Below, one piece after another: positions 1 through 43,695 of a stretch of 64,000 bases of DNA. The notes under the pieces are model-generated. The model searched no databases. It saw only the letters and a list, made by a program, of their open reading frames with translations, and was not told the origin of the DNA. The stretch's first letter is position 1; every line of letters starts with the position of its first letter. The position numbers were made by a program, and so were the translations under genes. Origin of the DNA: Cyanidioschyzon merolae (lineage: Eukaryota). The stretch lies in assembly GCA_000091205.1 (NCBI GenBank), contig AP006502.2; one strand, 5' to 3'.

Positions 1-1076
1 ACGCACCAGCTTGCTCGTGTGGTCTTGAAAATACCAGGATGCAGTTCCAAAATATGTCCGATGACGCGACCTGCCATCTTCCACCGAAATTGCAACGATA
101 GCGTTCCGGGGACTCCGCAATCGGTATAAAGCACAGGGACGTCGGTTTGGTTTCTCAGTCGATGGGAACTTCTTCGGACGAAACGATTGAAGCGTTTGGG
201 GGGTTTCGCGGAGCAGGCAGCCTATTCAATGTAGGATCGAATTGGAAGAGAACGAGAACATCAGCATCTGTTCGAGCTGCAGTAGATACATTTGGCGGCT
301 TCTGCTACGCTCGTAGAGAGGGCCCATGCAAGAGCACAAACCACTCTGTCGAACCATAGAAGACTTTTCGCCTGACGTCTAGCAGCGTCCTTCGATTCGA
401 TCGCGCGTCATTTCACCGTTTTCCTTGCGTTCGAGCTTTTTCGGATTCCTTTGGGGTTGAGCTGCATTTCATTCCTTCGTACGCTCCGTGTTTTAACCCA
501 TTCGAATGGGTTTTTCTATTGTGAAACGTAATGATTGCTCCACTGGGAGAATCGCGAAGCGTTCGGCATACGGTGACACACCAGAGACACATTTCATCTT
601 TTTTGTGCAAGTACTTCTTCCTCCAAGAATATCCTCATCTAAGGACACACAGACCTGTGTTCATTTTAGAAAACTTAAAGGATGAGCTGGGGCCTGCACT
701 TCAGAATGTCGTGATGGAGAGGCGGTAGCGGGGCGCATCGTCGATAGAATACCACGGTGAGCTGGGAGAGCACCAATTGACACACAGGATACGAGTTCGA
801 GGACTTGTCGCATTGGTGAGTACCGCCAGCGGCAAGAAACGCTTCGAGTTCGTGCACCAAGACTCTAACGCCGCCATCCATATCAGAAGGTATACAGTGC
901 TGAAGACGATACCAACAGAGCGGACGGAATGCAACCTTGAGGGGCAGCCTCCCAGGCTCGAAAAGTGCAATCAGAAGCTGAAACTGATAGCAGGGGGCCG
1001 GTCGAAGAAGGCTGAAAAGTGTCTCCACGTCGGTATTGCTTTACTGTATGGTCGCGGAATGTTCTCGCTCCTCTGA
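1..1076 (+). pseudogene. TnpB/Fanzor-like (IS605 OrfB-family RuvC fold) copy 1. 3' two-thirds only: 5' end lies outside the window and in-frame stops interrupt it (three same-frame ORF pieces 147-359, 531-728, 777-1076)
   Basis: All three pieces lie in frame 0. 'VFILENLKDELG' resembles the RuvC-II ivlEdLn motif. 'FEFVHQDSNAAIHIRR' resembles RuvC-III DxNAAxNI. Collinear protein similarity to copy 2 (42919-43695) includes the conserved C-terminal 'GGRSKK..LHVG'. TAG at 726-728 is in frame. Confidence 0.5.
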
Positions 1077-3343
1077 ACGAGTGAAGTCCACCGACTCGAG
1101 CAACCATAGTTCAGCTGCAGTGTCTTTCCATCCGAATCAACAATAGCCATTACATGCTTTTTCTGCGACTGTTGCCTTTTCCTCTCGCTTGTCTCCGTTA
1201 TCTAATACGTGCGTTCCTGTCCCTCCAGCGTTGTTTTCAGTAGTCGAAAAGTGTTCGTGACAGTGTTCAAGTTCCGATTTCGCCGCTTCGGGCCGTTTTC
1301 CATGCATTTCATCCACAGGGAGTAGTTGCAGACTACGCTTCGCTTGCCATTCGCATCTTGTTTGTTTACAGATTCGACGCGCCCTTCGCAGCGGTGACAC
1401 ATAGTAACGATCATGAATGGGCACATGTGCCCATCAGCTCCCCTTACGTGTGCCGTCCTGTGGCGCATGAAGGCTTGTTTTCGCGTCCGGCTCATGCCTG
1501 TGACGTGTAAAGAGGGGTCCCAGGAATACCCTCCGCCGTTTTTGCGCCCGCTCTAGTACCGAAGGACGACGGGCTTCACCTGCGCGATATCCTCGGAGTG
1601 CATAATCCCCGCCACACGAGCGAGCACACGCTACTCCACTCGATAGAGGATTTGTGGAACGCGATGTCGTTCATGATGATGAAAAAGGCACCGGAAGGAT
1701 AATCCATGCCGGAGACAACGAAAAAGTCAGATCCGTTGATGCGCCCTTCGCGCTACGCGGTAGCAAGCGTTCCACGCGAAGCGACCGATGGAATGACGAA
1801 GATGCGAGTCCCAGGCCCTTTTCCGCACAAACAGAAGAGACGATTGCCCCTGGGGGCATGTCTGGGACGGCGTATCTTGCGGGCACGGAATACGGGGCTC
1901 CGACGGCCACAAAGAGAAGCGGAGCACCCTGTCAAACGGAGCCCCGTGTTTGACGTCACAAGTTCAGTGAACTTTTAGCATGGGCGTGTCAACAGGTCAT
2001 CAAAGGACAAAGTCGATTGATTCTTGCTCGCCAATTCAGGGGCGCGATATGCTACGGCCTCGAGTTGCGTCCAAGCAGAACTATCGAATAGTTGAAGAAT
2101 GCGTGATTTGCGCGTACTCGACGTAAAGAAACGAAAGGTTTCGTTGCTTGTCCATATCCACTGAAGACTGGTATCGGTTGCTTCACGGACGCTTGTTCGT
2201 TGGCGTCACGAACCATCTCGATTCCACTTGCAGTAACGTATTCCAGCGGGAACGCGTCGAGGGGGCCTCTCCTATACGAGAATCGAGGATCCTAAAACTA
2301 AGTATGTATCCTAAAACCGCAACTGTTGCACTTCTAATGTCGATGTCGTACATCTGCAAGCAAGTTCCGGAACATCGAATGACAGGAACAAAGCGAGCAA
2401 TTCAGCATTCCATATCTATCTGACACCAGCATTGCGGACATATGCGCGGCGGCAGGCCGCCCCAGCGTCTCGTGGCCAATCTCTCATGCTTTGGGGTAAC
2501 TGCAAGGTTACCGCCATTTCGAAAAAACCTATGATCAAGGCGGACGCTGTTACCATCAAGCTACCGAGCGCCCCGGATTGCTCTCGATGGGTCCTCTGTT
2601 GAGAATCTGGACTTGGCGGCACCAGCACGATACTATCCAGCTTCTTTGGTGGCGTTCAGAAATGACGCTTCAGAGACCCAGCGCCCTTTCGATAACGGTA
2701 GCCTGCCAAAGCCCGCACGCCTCGGTTCGCGAAACCATACTGCGTCCGTTCAGGCATCGCCGGCGCTCATTCTATCAGTCTAGCTCGTGCGACAACGGCG
2801 AGATAACCTCTAATGAGGGCCGTTTCTCCACCGCCCGTAAAGCATCAGCGTGTCGTTGTATTCGTAGACGGCACGGCGGGCGATCGTGGTGCGCTCTCTG
2901 AGTGACGCTCCGCGATAGCAGCAGGGGCGACGCTGGTCAAGCTTAGGTCGCAATTTGACTTGCGTTTCGATGATCGCCTTGGTCGTTGTTCAGTGCCGAG
3001 TGAGTGCTATTTGTATGTGCGAAGTAGCGAATGTGCGCTATCCCGCAGATGCTCATGACCTAGATTGATAGAGGAATATGGCATGTGCGCGCAAGCGCAG
3101 CGCTACGGCATCTCGCTGGCGGCGGCAAAGACGACTCACTCGCTCATCGCATGCCCAGCATACACCCTACTAGATACGCTCCGGTTCCGTACACATTTTG
3201 ACCACAAATCTGCGCGGTGTCACGGCTCCGTTCACGGCCTTTGTATGCCACGTCGACTAACTGAAAGCACAGCGGATCCTAGGTCGGAACAATAGATCCT
3301 TCATCTGCGAGCCATTGCCGTATCGATCACGTCATCAGATCGC

Positions 3344-4468
3344 TCAGGTTCGTGGTGATGCATGCCCCGTAGAGGCCGCGCTTTTGCCTACCGTGCGAAG
3401 CAGTCGAGTGTTGCTGTCGACATCGGCGGGCATCTCGACGTCACTGGGCTCACTTTCAGATCCGCTAAGACGCGACCCTGACCACGGGACCGATGTCGTT
3501 CCCTTGCTCTGAGACTGACTCTCCGATACGGCTTCCCGTGTCCACCAGAAAGACGCGAGTCTTCTTCTCAACCACGGATACACGCCGAAACACCACTCAG
3601 GATCATGCAGACGTTTCCAGTGCTCGGTCTGCAATTTTGAGAGATGCGCTGCAACCCAGCCCAACTGTTTCGTGCCGTGCCTAATAATTTTTCGGGACGC
3701 CCAGTTTATGAGCGATGCTGGAATAAACTTGATACGCGGATCGAATACACCCACCAGACGGACCCGAGTGCGACCCCGGGATACCGGATGCAGCTCGAAA
3801 CACGCTCGCGCTTCGACGGTGACGGAGCGTTGGTCTGCCACACGCTCGCGCATCCGTTCCGCTGCACGCCATGCCGCACCGTCAGCGGGGCGCACAGAGC
3901 GAATCACAATGTAAACGGACTGGCTGGGTTCATCGAGCGCATCAATGCCTCGCCCTACCAGGTAGATGGTGCGGTCCGCGAAGGGCCACGGCGCATAGAA
4001 GCGTGCGTAAACCGCACGTTGCACCCGTCCACTCGGAACCAGAAGTTTTATATCCCTCACATACCAAAAAAGCTGCCCGAAGAGATCCGGTTCAGCCAGT
4101 ACACAACAGAGGTTCTCGAGCGGTGCACTCAACTCCGCTGTGACGTGGTACTTGTGTAGGACACTGCCGGGAATCCTACGATATCGTACTATCATTCGTT
4201 TTGTTTGCACTGCTATTGAATAGGCGGGATCGCTTTCGTCATTTAAATCTTGGAGAAAAAGCGATAAGTCATCGGTTTCCCGGAAAATCTCCTCAATGAG
4301 GGGTCCGAAGCTCGCAGCACGCGCCGCAGTGATACCCTGCTGCACTAGAACTCGACGCGCAGCAAAGAGCTGCTCCTCCTCGTACAGCGCTCTGGCATCG
4401 GCTATCGCTGGGTTATCCCAGGCATCAAAATATATGCTATCTTCCGGGCCCTCCTCGAGTCTTTGCAT
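3344..4468 (-). CDS. START/Bet v1-like lipid-binding domain protein
   Basis: 374-aa ORF with ATG start. Central region 'AVYARFYAPWPFADRTIYLVGRG...VIRSV' and 'VFDPRIKFIPASLINWASRKII' match the START-domain pattern (pWPlspRDfv ... DpkGxiPxwlvN). Confidence 0.5.
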   Translation of the reverse strand: MQRLEEGPEDSIYFDAWDNPAIADARALYEEEQLFAARRVLVQQGITAARAASFGPLIEEIFRETDDLSLFLQDLNDESDPAYSIAVQTKRMIVRYRRIPGSVLHKYHVTAELSAPLENLCCVLAEPDLFGQLFWYVRDIKLLVPSGRVQRAVYARFYAPWPFADRTIYLVGRGIDALDEPSQSVYIVIRSVRPADGAAWRAAERMRERVADQRSVTVEARACFELHPVSRGRTRVRLVGVFDPRIKFIPASLINWASRKIIRHGTKQLGWVAAHLSKLQTEHWKRLHDPEWCFGVYPWLRRRLASFWWTREAVSESQSQSKGTTSVPWSGSRLSGSESEPSDVEMPADVDSNTRLLRTVGKSAASTGHASPRT

Positions 4469-4639
4469 GGACGAAGCACGTTAGCAGAGCCATACGGGCG
4501 GTATTCGCCATACGCAAACCCAGACGCTCTGAGGCCCACGCGCCTGCTGCGCTTCGTCGGCAATCGCGTCGATGATTTTTTTTCCGATGACAAAACATGT
4601 ACATTAATTCATGGATTCCGGATTGTGAGAGGGATATTG

Positions 4640-5235
4640 GCTTTCGGGAAAGCGTCCATCATGCTGCTGCACCCTACCACCGAGTTCCGTCAACTGTTCT
4701 CAGATGTACTGGTCGTTTTCTATGTTCCTCTGTTCGCAGAGTATCTGCTTTGAGCACCTGCCTTGGCGCCGACACCGGTGGAGCAGATGTATCACGGAGA
4801 GAGAACGGCTTTGCGATGCCACGGAGGGCGTCGGCTCGAGACATGATTCATTCAACACGGGGTCGGAGTACATAATTATTCCGGGAGCCTGCCAGCTGCG
4901 CAGACAGAAGTACTGCCTGCGGCAGTGCGAAGCGATTGACTTGGAGTCCACTGCGACCAGGGCGACGCCCAAACGCAGCATATCGGCTCCTGGTCACTGA
5001 ATAAACTGCGTTTCGAACGAGCTTCTCAGATCCCTTCACGGCACTAGGCACTGGGAAGAGCATGGAGCACTGGTCTGACAGACTCGTCCGGCTCGCTGGA
5101 CCTCTCGCCTAGATGATAAACTTTCGACAATGCGGAAAGCTTTCCCGCATTTCAACGCTTACCCTAGACAGGGAACGGGATAGTTATCTCGTTGCTAGTT
5201 AGAGGCTCGTTTTTGTTCCTATAAATGAATACAGG
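4640..5235 (+). repeat. Degenerate ~0.5-kb dispersed repeat, copy A (partner at 40790-41265). Contains an intact 98-aa Cys/His-rich ORF at 4704-5000
   Basis: Collinear DNA similarity to 40921-41265 (clear), with weaker similarity out to 40790. Shared 21-mer gactcgtccggctcgctggac sits at about 5085 and 41106. A 123-nt in-frame indel separates the copies. Confidence 0.6.
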
Positions 5236-6594
5236 ATAAACTAGTACCGACTCACGGGCACCGCGCAACCTTTTTTGGCCAACCCTATGCTTTAGATTTC
5301 AGTTTATGCGCACATGCTTCGAGACTGAGAGGGTGCCCCGCGAAGTGCGATCGCTTTAGCTCCTCGGATCTCGTCTTCAGCACCGCACATCGACTTATAT
5401 TGGTAGCAACGTTGAAGTCTCGATTCAGGAACTCCATGCATTAACTGATGCGGGTTGAACTCATCCATACAGGGTTTGCTAGAATTTGTGCCTTCTATGC
5501 AATTTGGTGCTCTGTCAGCTCGCCGTACTCTTATTTAGCCGAGGCGCTCCGCTGTCTTCTCCCTATCTCGACATTATGAAGTGAACACCTCAGCCCGTAC
5601 CGTAGAATATTAAAATGAACGCACTCCTTCATGCCCTTAGGTAGCGACAGTCCCCGAGCGAGAAGGACTTGCGGAAAGAGAAAGCAGGGGAATGGTGATT
5701 TACCATGTTGTCCAATCAAGGCCGTCGCCAGACCTGCAATGAAAACGTCTTCAATGATTCAACGGAATGGTTGGCGCTGTAGTTTGAGCCTTCTCTACGA
5801 GCCAAACTGAGGCTGCCAGATGAATCCACTGTAGCTAGAATAGATGAAGATGTCGTCATTCTCTACGTGCTCGATCGTACATACAACGGGCACTCTGCTC
5901 CCCGAATACCCATATACACTCCGATCCTTTCATCCGAAGCAAGTCTCATCGACTGAGAGAAAACAAACCGACTTCTCCGTCTTCACATCGACTGCAACGT
6001 TCCAGGAACGCTGTCGTTGCGATTCCGGTGCTAGTTGGCCGTGTGTGCATTAGGACGCTTTGTTTGTGTCTGTACATTAGTGTTTTCGGGACCAAACGAA
6101 CGACCCGTTGTGAAACATTGACACCCATGTCGGCTACGATCGTCGCATTTGCTTTTTATTACGTGCTCTATAAATCGTGTTCAACCGCCGACCGCAAGCA
6201 CGCCTAGGGGGTGGCAGTTTCTGATGCAGAGCGCATCTGTTTTCTTTCTATGATCCTGAAGCACCTGCGTTCTATTGTATGACCGACTTGAATGAGGAAT
6301 GCAGTCCTCCTTGCACTGTTCAGTATAGAATATATATCCTATAGGCAATTCGTCTACAGTCTATGCTGGGAATGGTGCTATGATTTCAATCCCCTGCTGT
6401 AAACTGCAGCCGGAGCAGTGCAAAACTGAGTAGAAAGCATACAGGAAATCAGCGCGCTTGGCGCGAACACGAGCGTGCACATCCGTGGCATGCACCCGCG
6501 GATCAGCAGCCAAGGGCACGCAGGCGTCTGATGAGGTTTCCCCCATTTCCCGACGGGATACACCAGAGCGTCTTCCGCGCAAACAGGCCCCTAC

Positions 6595-6657
6595 GTGTGC
6601 TTTCTTGTGCGTGTGCTTTCTTGTGCGTGTACGTGCGTGTGCTTTCTTGTGTGTGCT
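6595..6657. repeat. TG-rich microsatellite, three tandem copies of a ~16-bp unit gtgtgctttcttgtgc
   Basis: Direct reading of 6595-6657. ORFs on both strands across it (e.g. 6361-6678) are low-complexity artefacts. Confidence 0.8.
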
Positions 6658-6699
6658 GCTCAGCCAGCGACCTTTCACACACGCAGTCTCGTTTACTGC

Positions 6700-20419: not shown

Positions 20420-21416
20420 TCAGAGGGTATAGCCGGTTTCGTTTTGCACTTGTGGGGAAGGCATGAGCGTACGTTTGCAGTGTTTTCAGCACGGATGGTG
20501 CTCGACGTGCCACAACGAGCGCGCCTGCGCGTTGCGTTGGGCTGCTTGTGCATCCCTTGTCTCGATTGGTGATGAGCGCTTAGATATAGCTACGCCTTTC
20601 AGAACCGTTTTGAACGGGTGCCATTCAAGTCAAGCGAAACAGGAGGACCCTTGATGTCTTCGAGGTGTCGGCAGCTGAGACGCGACATTTCGGCGAAAGC
20701 GCCTTCCATGTTCTTGACCCTCCTGCCTCGCGGGGCGGCACATTTCGTCTGCATAACTGCTGCTCATACTGGAGGCAGTCGTGTCGCTAGCAGCGCCCAA
20801 TATGCCCACATGCTTTCTGAAGGTGTGACATGTCCCAAAAACATCACTGCACGCTTGAATGAGCTGCTTTACAGCTCTCTAGTGTTCGTAAACGTTTCCT
20901 CCCAAACAGAGACGCCTAGTCGATGTCGAGAGTCCACCTGTATCCGTGTTCGATGAACATGAAAACTGAAATGCAAGCTCTGTTCCTGTTTTGCAATTAT
21001 TATCGAACGTTCTCGTTCATAGACAGCATCGAGACGACAAGTGCTGCAATACGGAATAACGGATTCACGCGTCGTTCCAGGATTTTCGGTCGTCTGTTTG
21101 ACTTGACTCCTTCGCCGCTTCGCCGCTGGATATCGTAACGTCACCGGATTTAAAACGATTCGCGACGCCTTCGAATGCGGTTTTATAAAATAACCAATAC
21201 GATTGTCAAATTCGTACGTGGAATCAACCAGTCCGCTCCTTTCGTTACGCGCAGCACGCGTGACTTCAGCGTGCCTCAAGTCTTCGTTTTTCCTATTTCA
21301 AGGCAATTCGTGGGCCCAGCAATGTGTATCTCTGGAATGGGGAGACAAGAAACGTGATTTCAAATCTTGACGACTTGTTCGCAAGCTCGCACCAAATCTT
21401 CGTTGAGCTTGTCATG

Positions 21417-21983
21417 TCAAAGAATAAATATATTCCGATCGAGAGACAAACTACTGCTCTCTATACATCCATCGATGGGACGGCATTCGACAGCATCAAA
21501 TACACCTCTCCGGGGATGCGCTTCCTGCGTCTCTCGTCTCTTCGGTTTGGATGGGAAAGGCTTTTGGACTCGGAATTCAGTCAGTCCAGCGATCGTTTCA
21601 CACGGAGTCGTTGTCACCGTTTTGCACGAGGAGAGCGTAGACAAATGCAAGTTTCTCATCTTATTTTCCAGGCAAATTTTCTCTTTCTGTATTTCTCTCA
21701 TCATGGACAACATTATTTTCCACGAATCATTTTTTGAATGCAATAGCGTACGCTTCCGTGTGCAGCGGACAGAGGACTCGCCCAGTATATCGTCCATGAG
21801 ATGTCTGGAATCATACGGTACAGGATCGGGCCCGAAAACGGAGAAAGACATCGAGAAGAGCCCTCTCTGCCCAGCATGGATGTGCCCCGAGCGATGAAGC
21901 ATGCGTTCACGCGCCACAGGGCTTGGCTTAGAAGTGTATATTTGACGGACGTATGCGCACACTTGAACAGAGCCGAAAGTCAC
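21417..21983 (-). CDS. ORFan paralog family member A. Lacks ATG at the family start position (track start is GTG), so possibly a pseudogene or with an upstream exon
   Basis: Protein-level collinearity with 29814-30455 and 49972-50547: hydrophobic N-terminus, 'RCTRKRTLLHSKNDSW', 'KPKRRE'. Many synonymous differences at DNA level. Confidence 0.45.
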   Translation of the reverse strand: MTFGSVQVCAYVRQIYTSKPSPVARERMLHRSGHIHAGQRGLFSMSFSVFGPDPVPYDSRHLMDDILGESSVRCTRKRTLLHSKNDSWKIMLSMMREIQKEKICLENKMRNLHLSTLSSCKTVTTTPCETIAGLTEFRVQKPFPSKPKRRETQEAHPRRGVFDAVECRPIDGCIESSSLSLDRNIFIL

Positions 21984-22542
21984 CGCTGCGAGGCGCGTAC
22001 CGATACTGGGTACAAAGACTATGATGATAGCGAGCCAAGCGTAGATGGCAACTCCCGTCTGTGCTTGGTAGGTGTCGCAAACAGCCAGACGCTGCCAAAT
22101 CGGGAATTCAATGCTGCCATCGCTACACGTCTACTGCTGCCATCGTAGCTCGGCGGAAGGGAGAGACCCCGCGTATTTAAAGCGTGGAATAAGACAGTGG
22201 AAATGAAAGCAATCGTGGAAGAAGTCGGCAAAGGCTGGTGTTGCTGATACAGGAAAAGACCCAGAGTTCAGAGCATACGGTGGAGCTAGGGGACCTGTCC
22301 CATTTTCATCTGACATGGTGTGTCTATCGGTGCGCGTGCACATTCCGCTCTAACGAAGCCGTGCATTCGTCTGGTAAAATAGGTCGGGCGTAATCCGTCA
22401 GACTTACGTCCCGTCTATAAGAGAGCAACGTTTCACTCTCGCGACTGTAATGAAGTGTTAAGAGTGGCTTTCGGCTGTCTCCGGGGCTTCTGGAGGTTTT
22501 ATTTCCGGACTCGTTGCAGCGTTTTTTCCCCTGGCCGCTTTC

Positions 22543-23193: not shown

Positions 23194-26100
23194 CACGTGC
23201 ATCTGATGTCGCAGCTCCGAAGCGGACCGCATGACCGCTGCGGAACGAAGTCTCGAAGCAGCGTTCTTCGTGGATCATGTTCGGCGGGCAAGCGGATTGC
23301 CCAACATGAATCCTGTCCACAATCAATATAAATAACAGGTTCGGAAAGATGACATGCTCCAGGTATCATCCCAAGTAACCGGCTTTGTAGCCCGTTAGTG
23401 CAGTGTGCTCGCGGATGATTGTGCGCTGGCGTATGGAATGCTGGAACACCATGATCGTCCACTCTTCCGCCGAGAAAGGCGTTATCGCTGTAAATATACG
23501 GAGCTCTGGCTTTGCTGGATTGCTGAAATATACCACACCAGTGCTTTAACCCAGGGAAGCATGAAATTCCATAACTGACATTGTCTGGATGTTTCATCGA
23601 AAGTCTGCAGCGTTTCAGCAAAATGCCCGCACAGAGTGCTCGACAACTTGCTCGACAGAAAGCCGCCAGACGCTCCGAAATTAGTCCTCATTTGCTGGAT
23701 GTTGATCCAGGCTTTCGGGTCTCGGCGACGAACGCTTTTAAGCGCGCATTGCTCCACGTGGAATCGCACAAGAGCAAGCCGCTCACTGTCCATGGCCTCG
23801 CCTGATGACGTTCGTTCAGCATACAATACTTAATCTCATGCGACTGCATCTGTTGCACGCTCTTGCTCTCTCCCTGTTTCAGCGTGCAGTGATGCGCGCA
23901 ATGCATGAATGTCATCCCGAATGCATCGATAGGAATCGTGTAACATCTATTCCTGCACTCGTCGAGCACGCTCTTCCGCGTAGCCGGACTGCAGAGCATG
24001 CGCGTTACGGCTTGTGTACAGCAATAGACTACCATCAAAGGACGCTACTTGCGGGCCCTTTCCTTCTCCAACCCATTGAACATGTTTGCGAACACCAGCA
24101 TCCTGCCTCTGTCCAACCGAAACCGGCGGCAGCGCCAGGGCAGTCTCAGGTACCGCCGATGACCGTCTGCGTAAGCCATTTGGACGCTCATGTAGTATCT
24201 GCTTGAATCTTATGACTGGGCGCTTTCTGCTCAATGCAGTACTCAAAGCGTCAAAACGGGTCAAATTGCCGCCATTCCGCTTGATAGTATGCCTCGCTGC
24301 GTACGTCACGCCAGGCTCTCGATCATACGGATCCCTGGGAAATTTGAGCAGCAGAACCTGCTTTCCGTCCGTGTCTCTGGCTCCATCCCTTTGATAACGA
24401 GGTACAGCGACGGCCATGACGTTCGTAGACCAGGGATCCGAAGCCATCACGAAGTCTGTCTCATCATCTGTGGTGAACGGATGACAGTGGGTCTTTTTGC
24501 ACGAACTGGGCGAAGGATTTCACAAAGTGCATGTAGATCGATATTCCGCCGATCTCCACCGTCCATGCAAACCGCTTTCGATTCCTTCGAAGTACATGAG
24601 AAACCTTGAACGAGCGCCGCCAATGCGCTTCGCGAGGTGTTTCAAACGCTTCATTCTTGCGTGCAGAGACCAGCCGTTTTTCGATGAGAAGGCTACCTAG
24701 TACACTCGAGAAATGTCTGCGGTAAATCATGGACAAAGACAGAACACAGCTGGACCACATCAAATACTAGCTTGACGAGGCGACGGCACTCGCATCCGCG
24801 GACGACATCTGCTATGTCCTGGAGGGTTCTGTTGTGGATAGCGCCGTAGCGCATGCTCCAAAACAGACAGGGATCAGTTTTCAAGCATCCTTTGGATTCC
24901 AATTCCGCCATTCCGAGACCTGTACCAATACAATCAGCCCTGACGAGCAGAGGCGACGGTTGCGCTTGATGCTCAAGCTCGTCAACCCCACGAGCTCAGC
25001 ATTCGCATGCATTGACTCCTCAGGAATCCCCACGATCAGCACCCACTTTTCTGAGCCAGAACGATGAGGGTATCGGTGGGAAAACGTCCACTGGGTTCAT
25101 CTCACCAAGCGCTCGAGACTGACCGGCATGCACTTTCTGAGTTTGGTTCAATACCTTTTTGGCATATGTGCTGTGGATCCCCCGATCGCCCAGATGGCAC
25201 TGCGACGCATCAGGGTATTCTTGCACACGTCTGTGCAAATGCCGGATGCCACGATGCGGCCGTACTGCATCTTCTGTACCGAATATCAGTTCTTTTGTCG
25301 CATCGGGTTATGATCGAAAAGCTCTAGAGGAAAGTAGACAGCTGGCAGCCGTGCGTACGGAACTCCTTAGGCAGCTGGTTGACGAGGTGTATCAACTGGA
25401 AGGAAGCTTGGCGAAAATCCATCGTATTAGAAGCTACTCGATCTTGAACGGCGTCCTGCAACTTACAGTTTCATGGATGCGAATGACTCGCCTACTGGGC
25501 CAAGAACGTAGAAATGGCTTTTGAAAACAGAGACGACGCTTTCAGCTGGACTGGACCCGGCAGAATCGGCTGGCACAATGAGCAGATCAGCGAGAATCTC
25601 AGTTGCTTATTTCCTGACCGCTATTGATTGATGCAAAGCGATGTTGTCTAAGTACGGGATAGAGCAATATGAGAAGAAGAAGCCACGAAGAGAGCGGTGA
25701 CACGACGCATAAGGGGTTTTGAGCGATCCTCTCTGATTGTAGGACTGGAGGCGACCATGCGATAGCGTCGTCGCTGGGGCTAATGTTCTCGGCCTTGTCA
25801 CTACTCTCGTCTGTACGGATGGTGGTTCGCCCCTTTTCCAGTACCCATATACAGGTCTAATGCTTCACTCGAATAAATTCACGTCGAGTGCGATGTGCAC
25901 CAGCCCCCTTCTGATGTAAGCGTTCGCTCTTCCGTAGGGAATCGATATGGTGTTTTTCGACGCGCTACGGGTTCACATATAAACGTGCTTTTCTTGTCCA
26001 TCCGTGTCTTTTCGTCGCTGTTCAAATCAGCGATGCGAGAACTTCACATCCCGAACTGGAATTTATTCGTATTTCGTAGAGAACGCATGGGATGAAATGG

Positions 26101-29813: not shown

Positions 29814-30455
29814 TCAAATAATCGGTTTCGTTCCAGAGTCAAATCCTCCCTGCTTTCTGTCCAGAGATGAAAGCGGATTCGACAGCAGCGGCATGGTACC
29901 TCTCACGTGATATGCTCCTGGTAGCTCCCGTCTCTTCAGTTTGCATGGAATGAGATCTTTGACTCCGACTTGAGTCATAGCAGTGATCGCTTTCTGTGAA
30001 GCATCCGTCATCGCGTTGTACGAAGAAAATCTAGAAGAATCGAAATTTCTCGACTTGTTCTGCAGTTGGGATTTCCCTCCGGATGCTCGGTTCATCGCGG
30101 GCAACATTGCGTTCCACGAATCCCTGATTGAATGGAACAGCGTGCGCTCGCGCGTGCACCAGATAGAGTACTCGTCGAGGGAATCCTCCAGAAGAAACCC
30201 GTGATCATGTAGAGCGGCATCGTGTGCGGAAACGGAGGAGAGCATCGAAAAGAGCCTTCTGTTCTCATGAAGGTCATGTACTGAGCTTTGCAGCGAGCAT
30301 TCATGCGCCACAGGCGAGTGTTCAGAGCTGGAGGTGGTGTCGCGGGCATATGAGAACACCTGACCACAGCCATGTGCCACCGTTGTGAGGCGCGTACCGA
30401 GGCTGTACACAAACAATATGAAACTGGAGAGCGACGCTTCGATCGCAGCTCCCAT
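29814..30455 (-). CDS. ORFan paralog family member B, the only copy with an ATG at the family start. Hydrophobic N-terminus (possible signal peptide or anchor)
   Basis: 'MGAAIEASLSSFILFVYSLGTRL..GQVF', 'DEYSIWCTRERTLFHSIRDSWNAMLPAM', 'KLKRRE'. ATG verified at 30453-30455. Confidence 0.5.
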   Translation of the reverse strand: MGAAIEASLSSFILFVYSLGTRLTTVAHGCGQVFSYARDTTSSSEHSPVAHECSLQSSVHDLHENRRLFSMLSSVSAHDAALHDHGFLLEDSLDEYSIWCTRERTLFHSIRDSWNAMLPAMNRASGGKSQLQNKSRNFDSSRFSSYNAMTDASQKAITAMTQVGVKDLIPCKLKRRELPGAYHVRGTMPLLSNPLSSLDRKQGGFDSGTKPII

Positions 30456-31506
30456 CTCTGAATGAAATGCGCCAACAAGTACCTGACGCTGCGAAATCGG
30501 GACATGAATGCCGCTATCAACATCGCTCGAATGCCGGCAACGGAACTATAGGTCCTGGGGAGACCGGCGTATTTCAAACTGGAGATAAGACACGGAAAAG
30601 TAACCAGTCTCAGAAGAAGCTCCCACGGTCTAATGTTGATTACAATTGTAAGAGTCCTAAACTTTACAGTGCAAGCGCGAGATAGCTGAGTGAACCCCTT
30701 TATTTTAGTCTGACATGCGTCTAGAGCCCGCACCAGAAATCGCTGTCCATACTCAGCGATTCAGTTCGGCAGCGGGTAAGCATCGCGAGTGTATCGAGGC
30801 GGTAAGTATTCTGTTTATCGAAAGGGCATGTACTTTGAACACTTGCTGTCTCGAATACAGTACGTCAGCATCATAGACAGCTTTCTCGTCTGCACCGTGC
30901 CGGCAACGTTTCCGAGCATCCCATTCAGATAGCACGGATCACCATATGAGCGGATGTCTTAGCACGACGTATAGCATCGGTTCATACACTATTATCGATT
31001 AGTACGAGAAACCATGCCACAGCGTCGCCGATTTTCCCGCCAGCGATGCTGCACGCACGGCGGAATGCGCACTGGTCGCATCCGATCTGGCTTCGAGAGT
31101 TTTTCAGCAGGTGCGATCAGCAGCAGCAACAGCAGCAGCCGATACTGTGCCCAGAGGCCTTTGACAGCTATTACAGACCCTTCTCTTGCGCTCGGGAAGG
31201 ATCGAGAACTTAATTCCGGAGATCAAGAGAAACGCTGGCGTCCATGGTCGCCCATTCGCCCGGAGCGGTGACAGCTAGCTGTCCCTCGAGATCGAGTAAG
31301 AGGCAGCATTCCTCAGCGAGGTGCTTGCTCGACCAGCATATCCGGGCATTGGACTTCAGTTCCCAGCGGATTCAAAGTCTTGTGCACTGCATGTCATTCT
31401 CCCGCACAGAGCCGAATTGGCGCGGCGTCAAGGCACCGGATTATGTCCTACGCATGCCCTGAAGCATGTATACGTGGACACGGCGCTGAAAAGAGCACCA
31501 AAGTAC

Positions 31507-33944: not shown

Positions 33945-34262
33945 TTATTCCAGCGTGTTTCGTAGACACGTACTTGCTGCCGACAACTCCGAGCTACACA
34001 CTGAGCTGTAATCCAGAAGATTGTCGATCACGCACTTGGCGGCGCTTACCACTTCGCCTCCACACCGCTTGACTGCGTCAACAACACTCAAAGTAACGTT
34101 CACAGGTATTCCGGCGGCAAGCTCTAGACAGTCAGGCAACACAGTCGTCAGATCTGTGTTGCACTGCGATAGGGTTGGCATGGCAGCCTCAGTGTGCCAC
34201 GCCAGGAGACTCAAACCGAGTATCGTTAAAAAAAGCAGAACATACGGATGAGCGGAACGCAT
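33945..34262 (-). CDS. Small secreted cysteine-containing protein (about 105 aa from internal ATG)
   Basis: N-terminal 'MRSAHPYVLLFLTILGLSLLAWHTEA' looks like a signal peptide. Mature part has 6 Cys. Track start at 34358 is GTG. Confidence 0.4.
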   Translation of the reverse strand: MRSAHPYVLLFLTILGLSLLAWHTEAAMPTLSQCNTDLTTVLPDCLELAAGIPVNVTLSVVDAVKRCGGEVVSAAKCVIDNLLDYSSVCSSELSAASTCLRNTLE

Positions 34263-36951: not shown

Positions 36952-37353
36952 ATGGGTCGCGTTCGTACCAAGACGGTTAAAAAGTCAGCGCGCGTTATCA
37001 TCGAGAAGTATTACTCGAGGCTATCCGCGAATGATTTTCACACAAACAAGCGCGTGTGCGACGAGGTCGCCATCCTGCCCTCGAAAAGGATGCGGAACAA
37101 GGTAGCTGGCTTCATCACCCATTTGATGAAAAGAATCCAACGGGGTCCAGTGCGAGGAATCTCACTCAAGCTTCAAGAAGAGGAGCGAGAGCGGCGCATG
37201 GACTTTGTGCCCGACGTGAGCGCCGTGAACACGGAAACCATTGAGGTCGACCCGGACACGAAAGCAATGCTTCGGTCCATTGGGCTTGGCTCTATGTCTG
37301 GTGTTGTCGTGATCCAGCCAGGCGAGCGGCGCCCGTACCATACTAGGAAGTGA
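36952..37353 (+). CDS. RPS17: 40S ribosomal protein S17 (eS17)
   Basis: '[39 protein letters not shown]' is the canonical eS17 N-terminus. ATG at 36952. Confidence 0.85.
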
Positions 37354-38060
37354 TGTGCCCATAGATAGTACTGGCGCGCCAACCAAACCAACCAGCACTT
37401 CATCGGGACAGCGAGCGGTACCAGGCGAGTGCGTCAGTATGTGACGCACCAGGCACTAGATGCACCCCGCTTGGTTGCACGCGGACGTTATTCGCCACGG
37501 TAAGTAGAGTTTGGGTTGGTATGCGTGCATGGCACAGTGTTTTGCATATTTGGTCCAGCGTGCACTTTCGTTGTGTGCCCATGGCGATCTCTCAGCTAGC
37601 GACCGAGTTCGTCATAAATACTCTTGATGCGCATCAACCGCTTTCCATTCCCCTGCACCAATCATCCGAACTCGCCTTGCAGTCAGCGATCAACACCAAG
37701 CTCTTCAGGATTGGTGCGCGCTGCTCCAGAAACATTCGCGTACAGGCATGCTGAAATATTATGAGTCCGTCGTTTCACCCCAATTTCTCATGCATGACTT
37801 TATCAGAATTTGATGCTCATTATAAACGAGGCCGGGAATATCGTAACTTTTTGTCTCTCCTCGAGACTTTTGATATGTGAGGCTGGAGAGCCTTTTTCGC
37901 TCTGGGACATGTTTTTCATTTTCTGTCACGCGACGAAAAAGTGTAGGTCGTTGACTCCTCTCATTCTGGCCTACAGCAGCGCCAGAATAACGCAGCACCC
38001 GTCTTCGTTGTCGTCACAATTCTATGTGGTGCCTCGACATGGCCAGCCTGCCCTGCCCCC

Positions 38061-38222
38061 GCATCTGACACGCTTGCAGTGCAGCACTTTGTGGACCCGA
38101 GCAAGATACGACCTCCGTTCTTTTACTTTCGTGGCTTCCCCTGCATCTGACACACTTGCAGTGCAGCACTTTGTGGACCCGAGCAAGATACGACCTCCTT
38201 TCTTTTACTTTCGTCGCTTCAT
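38061..38222. repeat. Tandem duplication, 2 x ~82 bp (about 95% identical)
   Basis: Direct reading: gcatctgacac(g/a)cttgcagtgcagcactttgtggacccgagcaagatacgacctcc(g/t)ttcttttactttcgt(g/c)gcttc repeated. Confidence 0.75.
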
Positions 38223-39076
38223 TGGCGATGACCCCGTCGTCATTCCATTCAAGTTCTTGAGGCGAATTCCGCAACACGAGCACGTCCACGACATCCGGGA
38301 TTCAGTGATGCCCACCACATCCACATCTAGAATTTCCCTCAACTTCTGTTTGATCGCTCTCCATGCACCGAGCGTACGACGGGATATCGGACGCTTAACT
38401 CCCTCACCCTAGTTTCCGAACTCACTCCATGACCGTCTTTTTGCCACTTGGCACAAGAAGGAGGTGCAGACCCCCTGGATTGCTTTCGGTTCGAAGAAAA
38501 CGTAAATAAAGGTCCTATCCAGGAACGGAAGCGCGTTTGTGGCCTCGTCTGACGTCCAATCTTTGAAAATCTCGTACATACGTGCTCTCAGTGTCTATAA
38601 AAACGGAAAGAAACAAGCATGTGAACTGGGTCAATATTCGCAAGATAGAATCTTAAGCATGTGGAAGTTCGCAAGCGCGTTCGCTACGCCTTGCAGCAAG
38701 TTGGCCTGGAAGACTCAACAAGCGAGACGACGGATTGCATTCTTTCTCGATTACGATCTCGTATGAAGGAGTTCTGCTACAATTTGAGAATGTGAACTTT
38801 TCCTTGGGTTACTTGTGCCCGTTTGTCGTCGTTTGTCTCCCCGGTGGAGTCGGGCGGCACATTTCTTCTGTATACCAGAGGATGTGTTGCACGTGTCCCG
38901 ACGGAATCGTTTTTTCCAGATGAAACGCACCTCCAAACGCTAATCTGGTCGAGAGACCCCAAGATTCCAGATAAGTTTTTCGTTGTTGTAGAGGACGTTT
39001 TCCAGTTTTCAATGCGTGGTATTTGATGCGTCTTGCGTCGACGCGTTTGCGTACATCACGCCGATGGAGTGCATGT

Positions 39077-40470
39077 CTATAGACCGACGTGCAGACGTCT
39101 CCCCGTCTTTTTGGACCAGCCACCTACTACTGGTTTCAACTCCTTCCCGTACAGTTCGACCCTGAGGGGTTGCCCCATAAAGCTGGATCGCGTCAGTCCC
39201 AGGGGTCTTCTTTGCAGCACCGCATATCAACTGACATTGATGGCGGCTTTGAAGTCTCGGTTCACAAATTCCATGCGTTTCTTGCTGGCGCCGCTGCTTG
39301 TACTCACCAGTGTAAATCATCCTCGAAGTCGTGGCGTCAGTGCTACACCAGTATCGTCGTCGCCGTCCCGTCGGGCAAACACCATTACTGGACTATCCCC
39401 CTACTTCGTCTTCGCCACTTGCTCTTTTCCGCTCGATGGTCGGCGAAAAGGGGAATTTTTCGTTTCCTTTCCGGGAGCCGGCGATGATGGCCCTTCAGGA
39501 TCCCCGACTTTCATATCCATACCTTTTCCTTGGGGTTTATCTCTTCAAATGAACGCACTTCGAACGCGTCTGCTATAAACCGCGAATAAGCATTTGGTGA
39601 CGCACATCTGGATGTGAATCACAATCGAGATGAAATCCATAGCATTGAACTCCTGTGCCATCGGAGCACCGCGAATGTCTGGCACGCGAGGCGCCCAGGG
39701 GACTGAGGTCCGTCCGCCCTACACCAGGGTTGCTGACCCGAACGCTGCGTACCGGAACCGCGAAGGAGCTTGCCAACTCCTTAGTCAATAGTTTGGTTGG
39801 GTTGTATTGGCGTACGCCATATTCGCCTGACTGCGTTGCAAGGTAGCGTAACTGCTTTTGAAACGGAGCTAGCCCTGGTCCATGGTTCGAACGTTGCGGG
39901 CGTGATGCGCGGCCCCATGCCCCGGAGGTTTGCCATTGAGGGCTTCAAGTTCTCGCTCAATTTGATCGTACCGTTTTGCGCTGTTGTGTTCTTTGGTTCC
40001 AGCGATCACTCCTGGCTCGAGCAAGCTGTCGAGCGGTGGCGCTACGTCCAGTATCCCGTCAACGAAGAGTCAACGCTGACCTCCGCTGAAATCACAAGAA
40101 GGGTGTTTAAACAGCCGAAAACCGGGGCAGCTGAGGACCATCGAAAGTGAGCGAGTCTCGCGAAAGGGCGCCGCCCTTGCGCCTTCCGGAAGACACCCGT
40201 CTGGTCACTCCCGATGAGGTTCTGCAATGTTGCTGACGATCTCAACAGCAGGATGCGTGGATGGAAGCGTGGGCTTGCATGCTCGTCGATACCTGAAATC
40301 GAAGAATACCCAGGCCTGCGCAGATAACAGCATCGGTTCAGAAGCCAAAGTCGCAGTCTCCAAAAGCAGATAAGAAATGACCTCGGAACGGCCGGCTGTC
40401 AGACACAGGCACCAGCCACCGCATATCGAAGAAGCTCGCTGGCCTCTATTAGACATCGTCATCTTACCCG
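39077..40470 (-). pseudogene. TnpB/Fanzor-like copy 3, degenerate (at least two in-frame stops, frame changes). 5' extent uncertain
   Basis: Minus-strand translation gives 'TLVSTSSGASKKRMEFVNRDFKAAINVS*' (RuvC-III-like), then 'QPLRVELYGKELKPVVGGWSKKTGRRLHVGL*' collinear with copy 2's C-terminus. Upstream piece 'ARLAHFRWSSAAPVFGCLNTL' parallels copy 2 'ARLRKNFYCGKQRAFANFFNQL'. Confidence 0.5.
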
Positions 40471-40789
40471 AACGCTCACATCATTCCTTGTGAAAAAGCC
40501 ATGGACAACGTAACGCCGAGATCGAGGCCTCTGTGCTGCATAATGCTTGCAACGAGCACGTTGGTAATGTCTGGTGTCAGCGATTTCTCCCAAGCGCCAC
40601 AAGAGATAAACGATTGTATCTCAAGAGCTCACATATAGGGAACGGCTTGCCTCGTTCAGCGCTCGCTTCGAAATATTTTTAGCCCTGTCTGCGAGGCGAC
40701 AACGCGTATCGTAATGCAGATTTTTCTCTTCGACAGAACCTTGGCACAACCTAGCTATCCCCGATCGCAGCGCCTGTTCGCAGCGCACA

Positions 40790-41265
40790 GGGAAGCATCA
40801 ATCGTTCCACCTGCTTCCAAATTCCACAAGCCGTGCTTTCCCCCGAAGGAACCAGTAATTTTTACGCCATATCGTGCGCCGAGTGCATGCTGTGAACACC
40901 AGCCGTAGCGCCTAAACCGCTGGAGCAGGTGCATCACGGAGACGGAACTGCTCAGGCGCACCACTGAATGCGGTGCAACCAGGGCCACCAGCAGACGCTG
41001 CCTAAGCATCATTAGTCCCGGAATAAACCGCTTTGAAGACGAGTAGAGCAGGTCTCGCAACAGCACCTGCCACTGGGGGGATGGGTATGAAGCACGAGCC
41101 TGGGAGACTCGTCCGGCTCGCTGGACATTCCCTCGAGAATGTAAAGTTTCAGCAATACGGAAACCTTTCCCCTTTTTGACGTTTATCGTAAATGGGGAAC
41201 GAAATTGTTATATCGTTGCAATTAAGTCGTGAGTCTCTGTTCTTTTTCCTATAGTGCGATCGATA
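40790..41265 (+). repeat. Degenerate ~0.5-kb dispersed repeat, copy B (partner at 4640-5235). Lies about 250 bp upstream of the first candidate 5' exon of Fanzor-like copy 2
   Basis: Collinear DNA similarity with copy A. Reading frame equivalent to A's 98-aa ORF is broken by a TAG (40906-40908, W to stop) and a 123-nt deletion. Confidence 0.6.
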
Positions 41266-42166
41266 GGCGCACCTGGGATATCTGGCAGTCTCGAGACACG
41301 ACGCTCACGTCACCGTTGAAGGGGAACGCGATCCTGATCGTTATTATGTTGCTCTAATGTACGAGTAGTAGTTACTTTATAATCGTACCAAATTATAGTT
41401 TTTCAGGTCTATTGTGTTTCAGCCCTCAGGTTAGTATACTCAAGTGTTTTTTCGCGGTTTATGACAGAAGCGTTCAAAAAGCGTTCTTGTTCAAGAAACT
41501 AGAAAAGCAAAGTTATGGAAGAGGAAATGGAGGAGCATGAGGGCACAGCGTCGCCGGCTGCCAGAAAAAAACGGAAAGCATGGCGGAGCAAAGAGGAACA
41601 GGAAAAGACGAAGACGCGGAGGCCGGAGGCCCTACGTCGAAGGCAGCGATAAAGACGACAGTACGACGAGACGGCGGTAAAAGCCTGTCTTCTTACGCAT
41701 ATCAAGGATCCGTACAGGAGAAACCTGCGAGATGCCATCAGAAACCGAGTCGATTCGTACTCCAGGAGTGTTCGTAACGCCTCTTCAGGACTAATGCATT
41801 TGGTGAAGGAGATGTATCGCGACGTGGTGGATTCGAAACCTTCGAGATTACGGAGGAATTTTTCAACATGACCTTTATTCGCCACCTGATGGTTGGCAGA
41901 GGGGAAGCGTCGAAGAAAATGAGCGAGTGGAAGCCCTCCACAAAAAATTACGCCAAATGCCGCGTCGACGCTACTCTATACAAGGTTGATGCGGATATTT
42001 ACACCTACGGTGCGATGAAGAACCATTTGACCATGAACCTCAAACGCTTCATGATACGCGCCGTGTTTGCGCTCTACCCGGGCCTGTCTCGTAGAGGAAT
42101 ATGGACCATCGCCAATTGCATCACAAACGATAGTAAGAATGAACGGGGATCGAATTCGTCGACAAG

Positions 42167-43695
42167 ATGACATCACACGGGAGAAAGAATAAAGATTCCT
42201 TCATCCGCGCGGCTATTCAAGAGCACCGTTCGGTCTTGGGGCTTGTCAACCCAGCAGAAAAGGTATCAGATATGAAAAAAAGATGGAGAAAGATGTTATC
42301 TCCTCATGCTGCGCTATTTCGTGTTTTTGACCGACGCCTCGAACGCAAAACAGAGATGGAGGTAGGTGCGGGACACAAAAGCAGAGTTGGAGCAACGGAA
42401 GGCTACCCTTCAGGCGAAGCGCTTCAACGTCTTTCGGTTATGCAACATCAAGTCGCACTTTGTGAATATCGACTGCAGAGTCGTTCATGGCATCATGAAG
42501 GATATCTGAACGGTGCTCGGTGTAAGCAGGGAGGAGTTCACCGGGGAAAACCGGGAGACGTACTGGAAGCATATCTTCGGCTTCAAACGTGTCAAAACGA
42601 GCAAGCAAAAGTATGCATAGGCATCAGCGAAAGCGATGGAGTAGCCACATGTGTACACTATCAGCGCCTTAGGGTGAATCGTCCTGTTCCGTCTTCAGTA
42701 TCGCCAGTGGCGAAGCATGAGGGAAACAAGAAGGCGGGTCCTACGACGCAGGAGGTGCGGGAGCATGACTTTGTGGTAGGCGCGAACCCCGGAAACACGA
42801 ATATCATGACCATCACAGTACCCAAGCTTGCGGAAGATGGTATTGAAGGCAACCTATGTCAAAAAGACACGCGTTTGTAAGGTTCTAAAGATAGAGACAT
42901 TACTGAGAATCGGGAATAATGAATGCAAGAAAGAAAATTGAGACATGGAATGCACGAGTGAGAGAGCACCTGGAAGCTATGAGCGAGGTGACGAGCCGAG
43001 GAACGGACTTTGGAGCTTTTCGGGAGTTTATGGATGTTCGTGTTGCCCATTGGGATGCACTGTGGGAGGAGTATACCAAGCCCCGGTGGGCTCGTCTGCG
43101 AAAGAATTTCTATTGTGGGAAGCAGCGGGCGTTCGCGAATTTTTTCAATCAGTTGAGTGCCCCGAAGGGGGACGAGAGTCAGAGGCTCGTAGTAGCGTAC
43201 AGAGCAGGGCGCTGGAAGATTCAAAAAGGGTGTACGCCAGCTCCAACGACGAGGGTGTACAAGGAGTGCGCACGTCGTTTCGTTACAATACCGATAGATG
43301 AGTTTCGAACATCGTATACACACCATGAGCTGGGTTGTACACTTCAGAGAGTGGAGATGCAAAAGTGCCAGAGGAGCCCTGAGGATATAGCAAAGTACGG
43401 AGCGCTGACGGAAGAGCAAATGGAAAGGAAGGCGAAAGTTCGAGGGCTACTCGCATCAGTGAATACAACGAACGGGAAGAAACGGATGGAATTCGTGAAC
43501 CGAGACTTTCATACCCCTATCAATATCAGGAGATGTGCAGTGCTGGAGAAAAGACCTCCAGAGTTGACGAGAGCCAACTTTGTTCGACAACCTCTCGAAG
43601 TCGATTTATATGAGAAGAAGTTGGAAGCAGTAGTAGGTGGCCGGTCGAGAAAAACGGGGAGGCGTCTGCACGTCAATTGGCGACTTTTTGTCTAG
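42167..43695 (+). CDS. TnpB/Fanzor-like (IS605 OrfB-family RuvC fold) copy 2. Two exons (42167-42876, 42930-43695) joined across a 53-nt intron. Possible further 5' exons (Lys/Arg-rich NLS-like ORF at 41515-41652; ORF 41868-42170) not resolved
   Basis: 'FVVGANPGNTNIMTIT' fits RuvC-I vGiDlGixNlaT with D to N. 'ARLRKNFYCGKQRAFANFFNQL' is the conserved inter-motif region. 'PIDEFRTSYTHHELGC' is the TS motif with zinc-finger Cys replaced. 'GKKRMEFVNRDFHTPINIRR' is RuvC-III-like with D retained. Splice joins ...KDTRL|KKIETW... in frame. Confidence 0.55.
42877..42929 (+). other. Putative 53-nt spliceosomal intron (GTAAGG...AG) inside Fanzor-like copy 2
   Basis: The stop TAA at 42878-80 lies inside a consensus donor GTAAGG at 42877-82. 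AG at 42928-29 restores the downstream frame (phase 2). The joined protein is collinear with TnpB architecture. Confidence 0.45.

Follow-up and report, generated by a model that had tools for sequence, protein, structure and literature searches.

The Fanzor-type relics found in a window of 64,000 nucleotides (the whole stretch of DNA that was analysed) from Cyanidioschyzon merolae, assembly GCA_000091205.1, contig AP006502.2, are remains of CMe-1A, a Fanzor1-encoding transposable element of this species. According to the alignments, all four zinc-binding cysteines of the target-nucleic-acid-binding (TNB) domain, the insertion between RuvC-II and RuvC-III, are lost from its protein, CMe-1, where His, Leu, Leu and Ser take their places. 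The identity with CMe-1A, an ancestral and clade-wide loss, selection on the cysteine-less segment and a retained fold are, taken jointly, held with good confidence. That ancestral CMe-1 was zinc-free and still an active nuclease has about even chances. Marginally below this we place the wider proposal that a large Fanzor1 clade (about 1,400 clusters, at an expectation value of E<1e-3) gave up the zinc of its TNB yet stayed a working RNA-guided nuclease, CMe-1 being the extreme, with no usable ligand.

CMe-1A was described in C. merolae as a Fanzor1-encoding element of about 150 copies, each about 80% identical to a consensus of about 3 kb, without terminal inverted repeats, of unknown classification and with some copies called intact (Bao & Jurka 2013, PMC3627910). 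The 3169-bp consensus and the 734-amino-acid CMe-1 protein, the product of a single-exon open reading frame (ORF), are available in its supplements (Bao & Jurka 2013, Mobile DNA 4:12, Additional files 2 and 3). The element of the window is the same one, the protein text from RuvC-II to RuvC-III being identical. The features of the full-length copy are as follows:

40728-43754, + strand: full-length dead CMe-1A copy, delimited by blastn against the CMe-1A consensus and global alignment ('copy 2' of a preliminary description of this DNA)
41514-43695, + strand: decayed Fanzor1 (CMe-1) reading frame, located by tblastn with the CMe-1 protein
42779-42802, + strand: RuvC-I motif GANPGNTN (family consensus GADPGNTN)
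43294-43314, + strand: RuvC-II motif IDEFRTS, in which T-S comes after the rearranged catalytic Glu of the Fanzor type, aligned to 'IDEFRTSS' of PpFz1
43303-43503, + strand: TNB-equivalent insertion from RuvC-II to RuvC-III without zinc ligands, reading THHELGC…VRGLLASVNTT
43492-43527, + strand: RuvC-III motif FVNRDFHTPINI (consensus FVNRDFNAAINI)
43733-43756, + strand: 3'-terminal 10-bp hairpin AACGUUUUUC UUCU GAAAGGCGUU, followed by a U-rich tract

By blastn, this copy was 84% identical to the published 3169-bp consensus over 2810 bp; positions 40974-43754 correspond to consensus positions 367-3169 (84%) and 40790-40967 to positions 62-240, and the global alignment revealed deletions with respect to the consensus in the 5' non-coding part. 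The start codon of the decayed frame has changed from ATG to TAT, and nine frameshifting indels and five premature stops are present. The frame is broken near codon 461 by a 1-bp deletion and stop codons, and is still open over the last 258 codons (42919-43695). The preliminary description had counted three copies of the gene in the window; a six-frame profile search and tblastn raised this figure to at least seven such relics, among them a single full-length CMe-1A, 3' fragments at three places and two relics that are older and more diverged. All of them are now non-functional, carrying stops or frameshifts or being fragments, and the full-length copy has in addition the inactivating RuvC-I change D431N.

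The strings quoted in that description were all located: IDEFRTS at 43294-43314, THHELGC at 43318-43338 and EMQKCQ at 43354-43371, all on the + strand, and EYHGELGEHQL at 747-779. It was also correct that copy 2 contains no CxxC pair from RuvC-II (Glu at 43300-43302) to RuvC-III (Asp at 43504-43506). The TS motif had been given as 'EFRTS / IEY'; EFRTS is present in copy 2, but the 'IEY' of copy 1 ('SSIEYHGELGEHQL') aligns to 'EDIAKYGPLTEEQM' of the family, about 25 residues downstream of the TS motif and past the first half of the TNB. The true RuvC-II region of copy 1 lies upstream, within 'ILENLKDELGPALQNV', and is degraded.

To place CMe-1, profile and structure comparisons were combined. 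Pfam detected no TnpB or Fanzor domain in the ORFs of the window or in CMe-1 family members, and a PDB sequence search with a narrow CMe profile or a single relative gave zero matches. A protein search with the C-terminal ORF (42919-43692) recovered 258 close relatives, all metagenomic and all but three without a recorded Pfam domain, and when 1.84 billion representative proteins were searched exhaustively with a profile, 1,417 matched at E<1e-3, many of them intact and 600-740 amino acids long. The clade profile (alignment A2, 40 sequences, 18 of which touch the Cas12f1-like TNB domain PF07282) matched Parasitella PpFz1 (PDB 9cf0) at E=3e-20, with RuvC-II, TNB and RuvC-III aligned residue by residue; SpuFz1 was undetected by this sequence profile. 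AlphaFold was run with a shallow alignment of 26 CMe sequences, which gave an unusable model (a pLDDT, or predicted local distance difference test score, of 36.6), and rerun with a 91-sequence alignment, which gave a model of residues 306-734 with a pLDDT of 86.4 and a predicted template modelling (TM) score of 0.82. With Foldseek, the best matches of this model were SpuFz1 (E=3e-13, TM 0.64), PpFz1 (2e-12) and GtFz1 (5e-9), followed by Cas12 proteins and TnpB; ISDra2 TnpB (8h1j) was a distant fold match only (E=6e-4). The Fanzor/TnpB type proposed in the preliminary description was thus supported by both approaches.

Conservation was scored in 48 distinct copies (<96% mutual identity) from metagenomes, of hot-spring origin. 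The two Fanzor signatures of Yoon et al. 2023, RuvC-I DPG and the rearranged Glu, are both present in CMe-1. The RuvC-I consensus is GADPGNTN, with D431 in 40/48 copies and P432 in 47/48; the RuvC-II consensus is VDEFRTS, with the rearranged E603 in 40/48; and the RuvC-III consensus is NRDFNAAINI, with D672 in 46/48. A prokaryotic-type TnpB (IS200/IS605, IS607) was ruled out by the DPG and the rearranged Glu, in place of D-hydrophobic-G and the canonical RuvC-II Glu. CMe-1 shares its fold with PpFz1 (PDB 9CF0-9CF3) and SpuFz1 (8GKH, 9CEU-9CEZ), with Foldseek values of E=1e-10 to 3e-13 and TM 0.60-0.64, and has in common with them the DPG, E-x-R-T-S and RD motifs, the position of the TNB and its two-hairpin layout. 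They differ in the finger, which is FCPKC…RCKNMSC in PpFz1 and a CCCC zinc site in SpuFz1, whereas CMe-1 has H..L…L….S, and identity is merely 12-20%.

The ligand positions were counted from the catalytic Glu: E+7, E+10, the position that follows 'GLL[WR]', and the one five residues beyond it. The rearranged E603 stands six residues ahead of the first of them, so that H610 occupies the place of the first Cys. In the profile alignment the finger of PpFz1 reads EFRTSSFCPKCES…GLLRCKNMSC. Where the solved Fanzor1 proteins have CxxC…CxxxxC, the equivalent residues of CMe-1 are H610, L613, L655 and S660. The published CMe-1 reads VDEFRTSYTHHELGCTLQRVEMEKCQRSPEDIEKYGALTEEQMERRAKVRGLLALVSTTSDGKKRMEFVNRDFNAAINI, and the window copy has the identical Cys-less text. 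Among the distinct copies the ligand codons specify His (42/48), Leu (44/48), Leu (41/48) and Ser, Asn or Pro, and never Cys. The 734-amino-acid consensus contains just eight Cys and nowhere a C-x(2-4)-C motif, and paired CxxC motifs were absent from the other five frames of the segment, the sole match being a single 'CIRC' in one antisense frame. Against PF07282, the full consensus scored E=0.51 over residues 669-679 only, at the edge of RuvC-III; CMe-1 therefore has no canonical four-cysteine (C4) finger in terms either of CxxC…CxxC or of PF07282. All window copies being pseudogenes, the ancestral state was read from the family consensus; because the consensus is itself without the finger, as are the 48 copies, the Cys loss is placed by these sequences before the amplification of the family, and the preliminary description rightly dated it before the divergence of the copies.

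The loss is not confined to CMe-1. At the same positions we tabulated the 81 nearest non-CMe clusters, with one 50%-identity representative per cluster:

Ligand 1 (E+7): H 29, Y 13, C 8, F 8
Ligand 2 (E+10): D 43, T 27
Residue preceding ligand 3: W 78
Ligand 3: C 60
Ligand 4: C 2

Over all four positions together, Cys was absent in 18 clusters and occurred once in 57, twice in 5 and four times in a single one. The canonical C4 finger is thus missing in 80/81 clusters, the typical pattern being H, D, W-C, none. The C4-bearing member, P0266, reads EFRTTRICCDCNS…GLRWCCSTEC, and P0193 has H, D, C, C. NCBI assembly GCA_013573275.1 contains one clade member, and a brine metagenome another. By these patterns, CMe-1 is the end-point of a stepwise decay of the finger across a large Fanzor1 clade. 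As for the preliminary proposal of a distinct sub-lineage with a degenerate or His-based insertion, the degenerate sub-lineage stands, and the His-based site may at most be entertained, with His at position 1 and Leu at positions 2 and 3.

Two older relics of the window allow the order of these losses within C. merolae to be followed. The TNB of the relic at 23742-25295 reads IDAFGMTFMHCAHHCTLK…SGLLLCDSTW, its ligand positions being H, H, C, none, and in the relic at 55177-57000, THHELLC stands at 56765-56785 and 'RGSVWWG' takes the place of the 'RGLLWC' of the clade. The first Cys pair appears from these sequences to have been lost long ago; the loss of the third Cys, together with the Trp, is assigned to the CMe-1A branch only, because the old relics read H, H, C, none and THHELLC/'RGSVWWG'.

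Selection on the segment was assessed from the variants among CMe-1A copies. Bao & Jurka (2013) report intact copies, whereas none of the 50 distinct copies considered here (metagenomic loci L003-L082 and the window copy) has an intact ORF; the best, L015 and L082, have no frameshift and one to two stops. Singletons were taken as post-insertion changes, and variants common to at least six copies as inherited from active source elements. The ratio of nonsynonymous to synonymous changes (N/S) was 3.85 for singletons, against 3.59 expected for random changes on the CMe-1 sequence, and 0.98 for variants common to at least six distinct copies (Fisher p=1.5e-35). In the TNB (codons 604-671) the N:S counts were 101:20 for singletons versus 10:37 for shared variants (p=5e-14), about 0.08 of the neutral ratio, and the contrast persisted when transitions and transversions were analysed separately. 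The segment from RuvC-I to RuvC-II gave 35:79 among shared variants, and the TNB was under the strongest purifying selection among the six ORF segments compared. The biggest gap between codon positions was that of consensus positions 2701-2800, with a divergence of 0.186 at third positions versus 0.051 at first and second positions. The test is conservative, since orthologues from diverged strains that slipped past the 96% clustering could bring nothing but neutral changes into the shared class. Because shared variants are biased to synonymous changes in comparison with singletons, the copies indicate that the zinc-less segment was kept by selection during the spread of the family and is not a product of decay.

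The structural model supports a complete domain, which was the check suggested in the preliminary description for the region from the TS motif to RuvC-III. Numbering follows P0003, residue 1 being CMe-1 residue 306. A strand ends in VDE (288-293). After it the model places a small hairpin, whose turn of six residues, HHELGC, is enclosed by T300 and T307, then a strand (309-312), two short helices (320-326 and 331-338) and a long hairpin (339-349 / 355-361) that runs into the RuvC-III helix, with a pLDDT of 88-96 throughout the TNB segment. The segment is thus predicted with high confidence to keep the two-knuckle, two-hairpin layout of the zinc ribbon, with Leu at two of the former Cys positions.

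In the structures of three Fanzor1 complexes, TNB and RuvC bind stem-loop 1 of the omega RNA, and TNB and the RuvC lid form a small cleft that feeds DNA to the active site (PMC11423790). The TNB of ancestral CMe-1 would still have gripped this stem-loop of its guide RNA and shaped the DNA-feeding cleft with the RuvC lid, and a small hydrophobic core, with Leu at two former Cys positions, would have stabilised it in place of the structural zinc. Ancestral CMe-1 would then have been an active, zinc-independent RNA-guided DNA endonuclease. We infer retained endonuclease activity because the catalytic triad D431/E603/D672 is intact in the family consensus, RuvC and TNB are constrained and the fold is retained. 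Stabilisation without the C4 site could have been achieved with no metal, or with a metal bound by other residues.

The last of these options amounts to a non-canonical metal site in place of C4, formed in CMe-1 by H610, H611, C615 and C625 and in typical clade members by His, Asp and Cys at positions 1, 2 and 3, respectively; we consider it unlikely, though the least improbable of the alternatives. It agrees with the commonest residues at positions 1, 2 and 3 of the clade (His 29/81, Asp 43/81, Cys 60/81) and with P0193, which has H, D, C, C. In the model, the first hairpin has H610 and C615 on either side of its six-residue turn, C615 is common to the nearest relatives P0147 and P0156 and to the old relic at 23877-23906, and H610, H611, C615 and C625 are each kept in 42-47/48 copies. 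That conservation, however, is no better than that of adjoining non-ligand residues; H611 and C625 are unconserved in P0146, the nearest intact relative, and CMe-1 has a metal-capable residue at just one of the four canonical positions, two being Leu. A lower probability is given to the view that CMe-1 was selected for some other role, such as RNA binding or control of transposition, and that the remodelled TNB reflects a change of function. The nearly invariant 'RGLLWC' of the clade is altered in CMe-1, CMe-1A lacks a transposase of its own, and GtFz1 exemplifies that Fanzor active sites can be non-canonical; against this, the consensus has the catalytic D431, E603 and D672, the first two of which persist in 40/48 copies each and the third in 46/48, and RuvC-I to RuvC-II is also tightly constrained (35:79 shared N:S). 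Neutral decay of dead copies, uninformative about the functional protein, would be favoured by the fact that every window copy is a pseudogene and none of the 50 distinct copies intact. It would have scattered the residues differently in each copy, but the same non-Cys residues occur in the consensus and in 41-44/48 independent copies, intact relatives of 600-740 amino acids are likewise without the finger, and the shared TNB variants are overwhelmingly synonymous, so that this explanation is very improbable. Least credible of all is an artefact of the gene model, with the finger encoded in a missed exon or frame. The host is eukaryotic and the window copy is split into two ORFs, but the split lies upstream, near codon 461. 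A single open frame runs from RuvC-II to RuvC-III and is colinear with that of PpFz1 and 90 relatives; no paired CxxC exists in the other five frames, the modelled domain is complete and confident, and the ORF is listed as one exon (Bao & Jurka 2013). The additional zinc-finger exon that the preliminary description had named as a refutation is therefore excluded.

Several points weigh against an active, zinc-free nuclease, the reading preferred here. Purifying selection means that the protein mattered and is not proof of DNA cutting. AlphaFold omits metals, and the confidence of the model comes from the alignment. The 81 clusters were ranked by a profile derived from Cys-less sequences and represent the nearest relatives, not an unbiased sample of Fanzor1. 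Typical clade members retain His, Asp and Cys, three potential ligands, and might bind zinc. The nearly invariant Trp-Cys of the clade is Ala-Leu in CMe-1, and the role of the TNB could have changed. Finally, a search of 40500-44200 against Rfam gave zero matches, and no omega RNA was identified in this interval, only the terminal hairpin.

Loss of such cysteines without loss of function has parallels elsewhere. The Nuc domain of Cas12a is a TnpB-family insertion between RuvC-II and RuvC-III that works after Cys loss; it is much larger, remodelled and not a Fanzor domain, and a citable statement on this point was not found in the reviews searched. Zinc-less 'C-minus' zinc-ribbon ribosomal proteins, unrelated to Fanzor, also keep working after losing their Cys.

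In the Fanzor literature the finger is treated as a conserved, near-defining trait, and a founding Fanzor1 member and the clade surrounding it are without it. The C4 finger was called 'strictly conserved' in all Fanzor/TnpB proteins (Bao & Jurka 2013, PMC3627910); the alignment of that study puts the lone C625 in the finger column, and the absence of a finger from CMe-1 goes unmentioned. Yoon et al. 2023 refer to 'many' members with the finger and mined TnpBs with regular expressions requiring CxxC…CxxC, and the Fanzor2 structure paper lists the zinc finger (ZnF) as a named domain. The 'RGLLW' motif of the clade is absent from the supplements of Bao & Jurka 2013, and CMe-1 is for this reason the only clade member represented there in this region. 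A statement that CMe-1 or a Fanzor1 clade is finger-less was not found in the searchable Fanzor literature. Since both element and protein were already published in 2013, the window adds no new gene; the zinc-less TNB is a previously uncommented feature of a known kind of protein. If the wider proposal on the clade is right, the CCCC finger would be inessential to the TnpB/Fanzor mechanism, and pipelines that demand CxxC…CxxC would have overlooked this entire branch of eukaryotic nucleases. Should the clade be active, the grip of the TNB on the guide RNA and the loading of DNA would be zinc-independent, which would be useful for the engineering of small editors; searches that require CxxC…CxxC (e.g. 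Yoon et al. 2023) or the Pfam TNB domain would under-count eukaryotic Fanzors; and the series C4, H/D/C/C, H/D/C/none, H/L/L/none would constitute a natural experiment from zinc ribbon to hydrophobic core.

The other relics of the window are:

73-1046, + strand: old internally deleted element ('copy 1' of the preliminary description), with a DDE_3 transposase relic (104-641) directly followed by a CMe-1-like Fanzor C-terminus (682/684-1046)
5261-6039, - strand: second, inverted copy of this internally deleted element, with a transposase relic (5989-5689) and a Fanzor C-terminus (5710-5261)
4585-5218, + strand: TE-N2_CMe-like element, 81% identical to CMe-1A consensus positions 1-633
39083-39596, - strand: internally deleted CMe-1A copy, consensus positions 833-969 fused to 2851-3092
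23742-25933, - strand: older diverged element, with a DDE_3 transposase relic (25933-25472) and then a Fanzor1 relic (25295-23742) of about 31% amino acid identity to CMe-1
54473-57000, + strand: second old element, with a DDE_3 transposase relic (54473-55184) and then a Fanzor1 relic (55177-57000) of about 22% identity
29712-30619, + strand: copy of a different repeat family, 'G', in which a TnpB/Fanzor C-terminus that retains the canonical zinc finger comes after a DDE_3 transposase relic
21367-22224 (+ strand), 49886-50643 (- strand) and 62848-63583 (+ strand): other copies of family 'G'

The Fanzor part of copy 1 comprises the last 120-130 codons or so, with VRGLVALVSTA at 795-827 and FVHQDSNAAIHI at 849-884. 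The element at 5261-6039 is homologous to 73-1034 in both of its parts (73% and 65% identity), and the copy at 39083-39596 retains just the second half of the TNB and RuvC-III (MEFVNRDFKAAINV). The four copies of family 'G', with about 66% mutual identity, have kept the CxxC…CxxC motif, e.g. at 30375-30524. The family consensus reads EHLTTAKCHRCEA…RLCMKCVDKSLTLPNRDMNAAINI, includes RLCMKCVDK followed by NRDMNAAINI, and matches PF07282 (E=1.5e-4) and DDE_3 (E=3e-8) in Pfam. Because family 'G' retains the canonical finger, finger-bearing and finger-less lineages share, by their sequences, one genome. The 3' end of the Fanzor ORF is repeatedly the part retained (73-1046, 5261-6039, family 'G' and 39083-39327), and might carry a cis-acting part, e.g. 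a guide-RNA gene.

A transposase gene of the DDE_3/HTH_Tnp_Tc3_2 (Tc1/mariner) type lies directly upstream, on the same strand, of the intact relatives P0191, P0146 and P0296 (three examined; transposase-Fanzor loci L083:77-3168, L084:541-3706 and L085:361-3515); P0191 comes from an NCBI assembly and P0146 from a brine metagenome. DDE_3 relics likewise lie directly upstream of both old Fanzor relics, of copy 1 and of its partner at 5261-6039, and transposase similarity was absent from the CMe-1A consensus. Since its relatives and the old window relics adjoin DDE_3 transposases, a classification of CMe-1A can be proposed: the comparison suggests that its ancestor was a composite element of the Tc1/mariner type and that the transposase was then lost. 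The mariner/Tc1-borne elements PGv-1 and PUl-1 (Bao & Jurka 2013) have the same transposase plus Fanzor1 layout as the relatives of CMe-1 and the old relics of the window; PUl-1 retains a canonical finger ('TSITCSCCHQ…'), and CMe-1A is without a transposase remnant.

The window has a G+C content of about 53%, a eukaryote-like composition. An alpha/beta hydrolase gene that adjoins the full-length CMe-1A copy shares a 90%-identity cluster with C. merolae 10D XP_005539386.1; near-identical syntenic contigs are present in hot-spring metagenomes, and a blastn search of phage records gave zero matches to the element. Transposon relics are unusually abundant in the window, where pieces of Fanzor or DDE_3 elements number at least 13. 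Over 315 bp, positions 54000-54314 and 62710-63024 are 98.7% identical, far above any other pair of repeats in the window, which suggests a recent duplication or gene conversion.

The 3' ends of loci L003-L082 consist of a hairpin of 10-12 bp followed by TTTG/TTGT. Two subfamilies with differing sequences (…CGTTTTTCTTTTGAAAGGCG / …CGTTCGACTTTCGAACGGCG) each fold at the same 3' place; in comparison with shuffled controls, only the …CGTTCGACTTTCGAACGGCG subfamily folded better (z=-3.1), the values for the other variant and for the window copy being -0.8 and -1.0. Similarity between copies runs about 12 nucleotides past the end of the published CMe-1A consensus, which may be slightly short. In the same loci, divergence from the majority is about 30% in the first 700 bp, versus 10-13% in the ORF, and a TE-N2_CMe-like start ('CGATGACAAAACGTTTAC…') is present in only about one third of the copies; the published consensus seems to have a 5' part that only a subset of the copies shares. 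One to five tandem acidic modules of about 22-25 amino acids ('…KDEDEKEADPATQEVEDNDFVVD…') are present in P0004, P0008, P0028, P0052, P0069 and P0109, just upstream of the RuvC-I DPG, and their number varies from copy to copy (alignment A1, columns ~115-250).

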